Origin: a phage
Length of the DNA: 780 bases
Sequence record: AF056260.1
Reading direction: 5' to 3' (one strand)
Part shown: piece by piece, positions 3 to 428 of the stretch
Layout of the letters: every line of letters begins with the position of its first letter
Numbering within the stretch: the stretch's first letter is position 1
Notes under the pieces: model-generated
Database searches by the model: none
The model's input: only the letters and a program-made list of their open reading frames with translations
What the model was told of the DNA's origin: nothing
Program-made: the position numbers and the translations under genes

Positions 3-428
3 CTTAAATTGGGGGTAAGTTCTTACTTTACTCTAAATACTAGGTTTGAGCAGGGATGGACGTCTAAAGGTTCTGTAGATGTAACTACTACAAGATATAG
101 TGGCATTGCTATTACTACTACTGCTAAAGGTGATGCGACAGTTGGTACACGTAACTTATTTGAAATATCTCCCGATGGTGCATTATATGTAGCACGTCGT
201 AATAATGCTAACAATACTGGACAATGGATCATTAACTTTCCTACAGCGGCGGGTACACTTGCATTAANTGGAACATCTGACATTAACTACGAGACTAACA
301 TAGAAGAATATGATGGTATTCGTTCCATAGAAAATATTAAGGCTATGGATCTTGTTACTTTTGTATTTAANGATGATGAGAAAAAACTACTCGCAGAAGG
401 GTCATTGCTCCACAGATTGAAGAAATAA
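3..428 (+). CDS. 5'-truncated CDS, C-terminal region of a phage tail fibre / tailspike-like protein with an S74-type intramolecular chaperone (autoproteolytic) domain signature
   Basis: Supplied ORF track gives 9..428 +, but the same frame has no stop back to the window edge (codons 3-5 ctt, 6-8 aaa), so the gene most likely starts upstream; the ttg at 9-11 is not preceded by any visible ribosome-binding site. In-frame TAA at 426-428. Translation has a Thr-rich segment ([24 protein letters not shown]) followed by GT[37 protein letters not shown], which matches the remembered S-D-x-x-x-K-x-N-I ... V-T-F-x-W-K-D-D motif of Peptidase S74 domains. Product call is from motif recognition only; no database search was run. 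Confidence 0.7.

Follow-up and report, generated by a model that had tools for sequence, protein, structure and literature searches.

A 780-base read, probably of the 3' end of the L-shaped tail fibre gene of coliphage BF23, and its Peptidase S74 chaperone domain

Introduction

The phage sequence record AF056260.1 holds a stretch of 780 nucleotides (called the window below, meaning the whole stretch that was analysed), and it raises the question of whether a reading frame at its start codes for the end of a tail fibre that is joined to an intramolecular chaperone of the Peptidase S74 type. This leads to the further question as to whether an unexpected Glu codon and an early stop within that frame belong to the phage or to the read. 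A first-pass annotation of the letters alone had proposed an S74-like peptide starting at a Ser codon and spanning positions 276-380, autocleavage in front of that Ser, and a place for the window at the distal, possibly host-range-determining, tip of a fibre.

Self-cleavage, together with a need for the domain during folding, has been demonstrated for the T5 fibre protein pb1, for the K1F endosialidase endoNF and for MYRF. Among the T5-like L-shaped tail fibres (LTFs), the S74 chaperone has been described by structure and biochemistry for T5, and in DT57C and related phages it has been recognised through a domain search. The C-terminal 133 residues of T5 pb1 (1264-1396) form a trimeric intramolecular chaperone, which is removed by cleavage between Thr1263 and Ser1264 and is retained when Ser1264 is replaced (S1264A blocks cleavage); Ser1264 sits beside Lys1269, and cleavage is coupled to correct folding via Arg1250 of the neighbouring chain (PMC4690869). 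Crystal structures are available for pb1(970-1263) and for the S1264A mutant pb1(970-1396) (PMC4690869).

Methods

Profile searches employed PF13884 (Peptidase_S74), a profile of length 58 with a gathering cut-off of 22 bits. The window was translated both as written and after frame repair, in which one N was put in at each deletion inferred from BF23. Conservation was counted over 53 database homologues, a set from which the BF23 LTF itself is absent and whose closest member is 56% identical. For the fold, the protein modelled was P0001, a 56% identical homologue that covers the tip end and the chaperone; its structure was predicted with AlphaFold using an alignment of 32 relatives.

Results

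Megablast analysis against annotated phage genomes returned one strong match, namely ltfp, the gene for the 'L-shaped tail fiber protein' of Escherichia phage BF23 (OR083247.1), while the next matches, to five or six T5-like phages of Salmonella and E. coli, were at approximately 80% identity. Between positions 3 and 386 the window is 99.5% identical to the 3' end of BF23 ltf, in the same frame and with 382 of 384 called bases the same; the differences within this segment are four, comprising substitutions at 165 and 291 and Ns at 268 and 371. We therefore read the window, with a probability of a little under nine in ten, as a low-quality read, made in a single pass, that covers the 3' end of ltf from coliphage BF23 (genus Tequintavirus) or from a virtually identical phage; in it, the distal tip of the mature fibre is encoded at positions 3-275 and the C-terminal Peptidase_S74 intramolecular chaperone at positions 276 to about 647. 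The features to which this reading refers are as follows.

3-275, plus strand: final 91 codons for the L-shaped tail fibre in its mature form (distal tip), in frame 3, ending ...AAGTLALxGT and matching BF23 save for the substitution at 165 and the N at 268.
273-278, plus strand: predicted scissile bond Thr|Ser, with the same layout as Thr1263|Ser1264 of T5 pb1; the Pfam profile begins at this Ser.
276-441, plus strand: core Peptidase_S74 (PF13884) region, in frame 3 as far as 386 and then broken by single-base deletions near 386/387, 427/428 and 441/442, as placed by alignment to BF23.
276-647, plus strand: whole intramolecular chaperone, 137 codons in BF23 (S1129-S1265), placed by local alignment to BF23 (L001:5274-5687).
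291-293, plus strand: Glu codon GAG at Ser+5, where AAG in BF23 encodes the Lys (Lys1134) of the Ser-Lys dyad.
398-415, plus strand: chaperone motif GVIAQQ, read as RVIAPQ in frame 2 (RRGVIAQQ in BF23, RRRVIAPQ in the window).
426-428, plus strand: false stop TAA in frame 3, which arises from the base missing at 386/387; the BF23 reading frame runs on for 86 codons.
654-700, no strand assigned: garbled bidirectional rho-independent terminator after ltf, in which the window's AAAAAACCCCTGATTT...CCCGGG resembles AAAGAAACCCCAGTGGATTTTGTCCACTGGGG with G dropouts.

The forward frame that begins at base 3 passes from the fibre tip, through ACA (Thr) at 273-275 and TCT (Ser) at 276-278, into a 37-residue peptide. 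This is the Ser-started peptide of the first-pass annotation, present as it was quoted and starting where it was said to start; its end had been placed too early, since 37 residues reach position 386 rather than 380. Scored against PF13884 on its own, the peptide gave 19.8 bits (E 9.7e-4). The raw frame-3 open reading frame had Peptidase_S74 as its sole Pfam match, at 16.4 bits (E 0.012) and over profile positions 1-35 of 58, a score that lies below the cut-off because the frameshift cuts the domain. Indeed, the repaired translation rose to 22.6 bits (E 1.3e-4), above the cut-off and over profile positions 1-57 of 58, and the BF23 LTF scored 49.9 bits (E 3.9e-13) with a domain beginning at S1129, the Ser of window positions 276-278. 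The T5 pb1 C-terminus, scored in the same way, gave 40.8 bits, also beginning at its Ser. The family assignment of the first-pass annotation is thus borne out by the profile, and in BF23 the domain makes up the C-terminal 137 residues (1129-1265) of a protein of 1265 residues.

PF13884 is contained in all 53 database homologues, each of which also carries the Ser; this residue aligns with S1264 of T5 and S587 of MYRF. The proposed cut between Thr 273-275 and Ser 276-278 would, judging by this alignment, correspond to the bond that is broken in T5. The sub-threshold score of the raw frame (16.4 bits against 22) is what speaks for a chance resemblance, in which a motif of the form SD....N..E.. 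would sit in a protein unrelated to S74. Such a coincidence is scarcely conceivable: the threshold is exceeded by the repaired translation as well as by BF23's near-identical protein, the domain occurs in every one of the 53 homologues, and every significant match of the fold search described below is to a chaperone structure. An S74-unrelated protein is refuted by these profile scores, for BF23 and for the repaired window, and by the fold search.

The fold evidence was obtained on P0001, rather than on the window protein. The chaperone part of this homologue model has pLDDT values of 86-96 and combines a small α/β unit with a long β-hairpin and, at the C-terminus, a long helix. Foldseek analysis of the model yielded ten matches at E <= 1e-3, all of them MYRF (7dc3), K1F endoNF (3gw6) or the GA-1 neck appendage (3gud); E-values for these chaperone structures ranged from 6e-7 to 4e-4, and the next match was at E >1. 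The modelled homologue is therefore predicted to adopt the S74 chaperone fold, which by extension would be that of the window protein. A phmmer search of the BF23 C-terminus against PDB sequences identified DT57C LtfA (8hqz) and the MYRF ICA (7dc3) with Ser and Lys both aligned, while T5 pb1 was not found in that search even at E 10.

The quality of the read bears on everything beyond base 386. The first 385 bases or so are nearly clean, after which Ns and indels build up, and beyond approximately 650 the letters are unreadable. From 387 onward, comparison with BF23 reveals three deletions and five substitutions in 67 alignment columns, followed by 12 deletions in the next 102 columns. G is the base most affected: positions with G in the reference account for 36 of the 84 differences from BF23, and 20 of these 36 follow an A. 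The proportion of G-after-A sites that are wrong (called A or N, or dropped) is 3 of 21 within 3-386 (positions 165, 268 and 371), as compared to 9 of 12 within 387-540, and errors of this kind were traced as far as 660. Accordingly, the window behaves as a single-pass Sanger-type read, and its error pattern resembles the weak-G-after-A artefact of dye-terminator chemistry. The substitution at 165, where the window has Ile and BF23 has Val, is probably one such G-after-A miscall.

At the opposite end of the read, bases 1-2 (CC) differ from BF23, and identity begins at the CT of a BF23 AGCT. This boundary at window positions 1-3 could have arisen by blunt-end cloning, for instance of an AluI fragment into a SmaI site, which would make the template one cloned molecule; two bases, however, carry too little weight for an argument.

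Past 386/387 the BF23 protein goes on in frame 2 (BF23 RRGVIAQQIEEI) and, after more deletions, in frame 1 (PTFVSTH..., DGLFKV...), and the coding sequence of the chaperone becomes increasingly unreadable past about 450, with the real stop falling near window position 647. Frame 3 as written does end at 426-428, and were the frameshifts and this stop genuine, the locus would be a truncated, decayed tail-fibre pseudogene with no more than the first 50 chaperone residues left. We consider this highly improbable, as the indels rise steadily along the read together with a growing count of Ns, most of the deletions are of a lost G, and the downstream frames still encode the BF23 protein. Taken together, these three properties are those of a fading Sanger-type trace rather than of gene decay, and a true truncation is rejected on this pattern of errors. 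It is most likely the read or the clone, rather than the phage, that gave rise to the stop, the frameshifts and the Glu codon at 291-293.

The motif at 398-415 illustrates what the read can do to conserved residues. GVIAQ, which is associated with trimerisation, is present in the BF23 reference, and the R, R, G, I, A and Q of this region are invariant columns among the 32 homologues. In the window the G has become R, through a G-after-A miscall at 398, and a Q has become P through a change at 411, where the read is degraded; both alterations lie beside indels. With an invariant G and an invariant Q both altered, this read is seen to introduce false changes even at invariant positions.

This observation is pertinent to the Glu codon. 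The Lys at Ser+5, whose equivalents are K1269 in T5, K916 in endoNF and K592 in MYRF, is found in 53 of 53 database homologues and forms one of only 19 invariant columns of the 32-sequence alignment; its codon is AAG in BF23 and in five related phages. Membership of the S74 family follows from homology and is independent of the residue at Ser+5, whereas peptidase activity would, by analogy with the characterised members, depend on the Lys. In MYRF, each of the replacements K592R, K592H, K592M and K592A abolished cleavage; since even conservative changes do so, a real Lys-to-Glu change would be expected to leave the chaperone uncleavable.

A G at 291 that is real, in a BF23 variant or in a clone with a genuine mutation (K1134E), would thus give a chaperone that folds the fibre but does not cut itself off, so that the tip stays capped. 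Several observations are in keeping with such a change. Base 291 belongs to the stretch of the read that is clean; the difference is an A-to-G gain after C, unlike the G-after-A dropouts at the other three blemishes of 3-386, and 'G gains' of this kind are only two of the 84 differences from BF23. The functional effect would be clear, given the MYRF K592 mutants. Furthermore, T5-like phages with defective LTFs still plate on laboratory strains, as does the DT571/2 ltfA amber mutant on C600; as LTFs are dispensable on K-12 hosts that lack O-antigen, a K1134E mutant would not be lethal and could persist in a laboratory stock. On the other hand, the Lys is invariant among the homologues and encoded by AAG in BF23 and its five relatives, and Ns and miscalls occur even in the best part of the read, where one random miscall in 384 bases is unremarkable. 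Exact-pattern scans of viral, metagenome and genome contigs for the AAG or the GAG allele of the Ser-Lys region found neither, and so gave no independent sighting of the Glu form or of BF23-type sequence. Finally, the BF23 assembly agrees perfectly with older BF23 fragments, as reported in the BF23 genome paper, which points to very low divergence between stocks.

On balance, a K1134E form that is uncleavable for this reason is unlikely. The Glu at 291-293 is most likely a miscall or a clone mutation, and there is a chance of roughly a quarter to a third that the template truly had G at 291, mutations of the clone or from PCR included. Were K1134E true, it would amount to an 'uncleavable' S74 variant of natural origin, and would offer a means of asking whether a tip that keeps its cap for good can still bind its receptor.

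The gene context of BF23 supports the assignment to the LTFs. The order of the BF23 locus, with the central fibre, collar, ltf, a terminator and then dut on the opposite strand, mirrors that of T5. Membership of the Tequintavirus LTFs is evident on the BF23 record, both from this synteny and from the 82% identity of the N-terminal 159 residues to T5, the window covering the 3' end of the gene and a remnant of the terminator. In BF23 this terminator (L001:5696-5730) consists of a hairpin of 16 pairs with a T-run behind it, and the read disintegrates exactly at the corresponding position. Collapse of the trace at the hairpin is a likely cause of the unreadable tail.

Two further open reading frames were noted on the strand opposite ltf. 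The T5 record (AY543070) carries a hypothetical ORF, T5.134, which has its own promoter and lies antisense within the chaperone-coding end of ltf (L007:6956-7327); the BF23 annotation is without it. In the window, a minus-strand ORF at 23-283 (86 aa, with an ATG start), antisense to the tip, is spurious: it has no PHROG match, and the five relatives lose its start codon and have internal stops.

The segment upstream of the cleavage site, 3-275, is the end of the mature L-shaped tail fibre, as had been suggested when the window was placed at the distal tip of a fibre. This segment matches PHROG tail-fibre families (phrog_6578, E 7.9e-19). In five BF23-like phages (phiP4, SCF, LmqsSP1, PS3-1 and Kenya-K44; L002-L006), the 91 residues of the tip are 73-78% identical to those of BF23, as against 96-98.5% for the chaperone. 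This difference suggests that the tips of BF23-like fibres may have diversified, or been exchanged, beside a conserved folding cassette, and it fits a diversifying receptor-binding tip joined to that cassette, as far as can be judged from comparison of the sequences. Four of these five phages are Salmonella phages.

The further suggestion that the tip is a host-range determinant is apt in part. The LTF of T5-like phages is an O-antigen adhesin and may influence host range in that capacity; it is, however, an accessory one, and the receptor-binding protein essential to BF23 is another one, Hrs, whose target is BtuB.

Relatives of the BF23 tip end and chaperone also occur outside the T5-like phages. 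Tail-fibre proteins of approximately 375-396 residues (P0004-P0015 and P0023-P0053) are encoded in Enterobacter, Citrobacter, Lelliottia and E. coli, on large contigs of the chromosome, and share the tip end and chaperone with the BF23 LTF at 36-56% identity. Some of them share the tip-end motif ...RRN..N..GQW.INFP...GTLAL.GTSD. These genes presumably belong to prophages.

Discussion

The S74 domain of the window is an already known type of domain in a gene of a classic phage that has been sequenced and annotated; the BF23 genome with its ltf is published, and the result matters little past correct annotation. What the analysis does provide is a guide to using this record: the apparent end of its open reading frame and several of its 'substitutions' are artefacts of the read and are not for interpretation.

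What is established is the identity of the sequence, the family to which it belongs, where its site lies and the modelled fold of a homologue. As regards function, we infer from the characterised systems that the BF23 LTF would be folded and cleaved in a similar manner. Three copies of the chaperone would assemble via their C-terminal coiled-coil, as in T5 pb1, the K1F endosialidase and MYRF, and their β-hairpin 'tentacles' may then clamp the upstream fibre and act as a template on which the trimeric tip folds. When the tip has reached its correct fold, the Lys five residues downstream would activate the Ser (276-278), which would cut Thr1128|Ser1129, whereupon the chaperone would leave. The mature BF23 fibre would in that case end ...LALSGT, at residue 1128.

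The closest known system is the BF23 LTF itself (WLW40739.1, from OR083247.1), whose residues 1038-1265 are essentially the sequence of the window; the gene had been annotated previously, and its S74 domain was found here by Pfam. The next point of reference is T5 pb1, of the same genus, gene position and Pfam family. Its N-terminal attachment region of 159 residues is 82% identical to that of BF23, and its site, ...NGTINT|SDARLK, shares the T|SDxxxK layout with ...LALSGT|SDINYK of BF23. The description of the T5 chaperone also matches the secondary-structure plan of the modelled homologue, with an α/β unit, a long hairpin and a coiled-coil helix. Past residue 159, however, T5 pb1 (1396 aa) and the BF23 LTF (1265 aa) have no BLASTP similarity in their shafts, tips or chaperones, and no BF23 positions could be matched to Arg1250 and Asp1239, the upstream sensor residues of T5. 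As the two chaperones lack pairwise BLASTP similarity, what connects BF23 to T5 is the Pfam profile together with the site motif and the gene context. The T5 fibre binds polymannose O-antigen. The '82.5% identity' given in the BF23 genome paper for the BF23 LTF and T5 pb1 appears to cover the N-terminal segment only (L001:1890-5687 compared to L007:6866-11056).

The BF23 chaperone is, by sequence, best classed as a divergent S74 subtype, nearer to DT57C LtfA and to the approximately 390-residue prophage tail-fibre proteins of Enterobacter, Citrobacter and E. coli than to T5. DT57C LtfA (PDB 8hqz chain d, 1076 aa) is the best sequence match among solved structures (E 3.2e-25), over the tip end and the chaperone, with GTSGIEYK aligned to GTSDINYK of BF23, although the aligned region is clearly diverged. 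Unlike the BF23 fibre, LtfA is part of a branched fibre built from two proteins, namely LtfA and LtfB.

More distant systems share the chaperone and not its cargo. The spacing of the Ser-Lys dyad in endoNF (S911/K916) and MYRF (S587/K592) is that of BF23, and ADLRAK of the MYRF ICA (7dc3, an S587A crystal construct) aligns with SDINYK. The chaperone fold is common to endoNF 3gw6, GA-1 neck appendage 3gud and MYRF 7dc3, at a sequence identity of only 12-26%. Upstream of the chaperone, each differs from the BF23 fibre: endoNF carries a sialidase tailspike, GA-1 a neck appendage, and MYRF a eukaryotic transcription factor.
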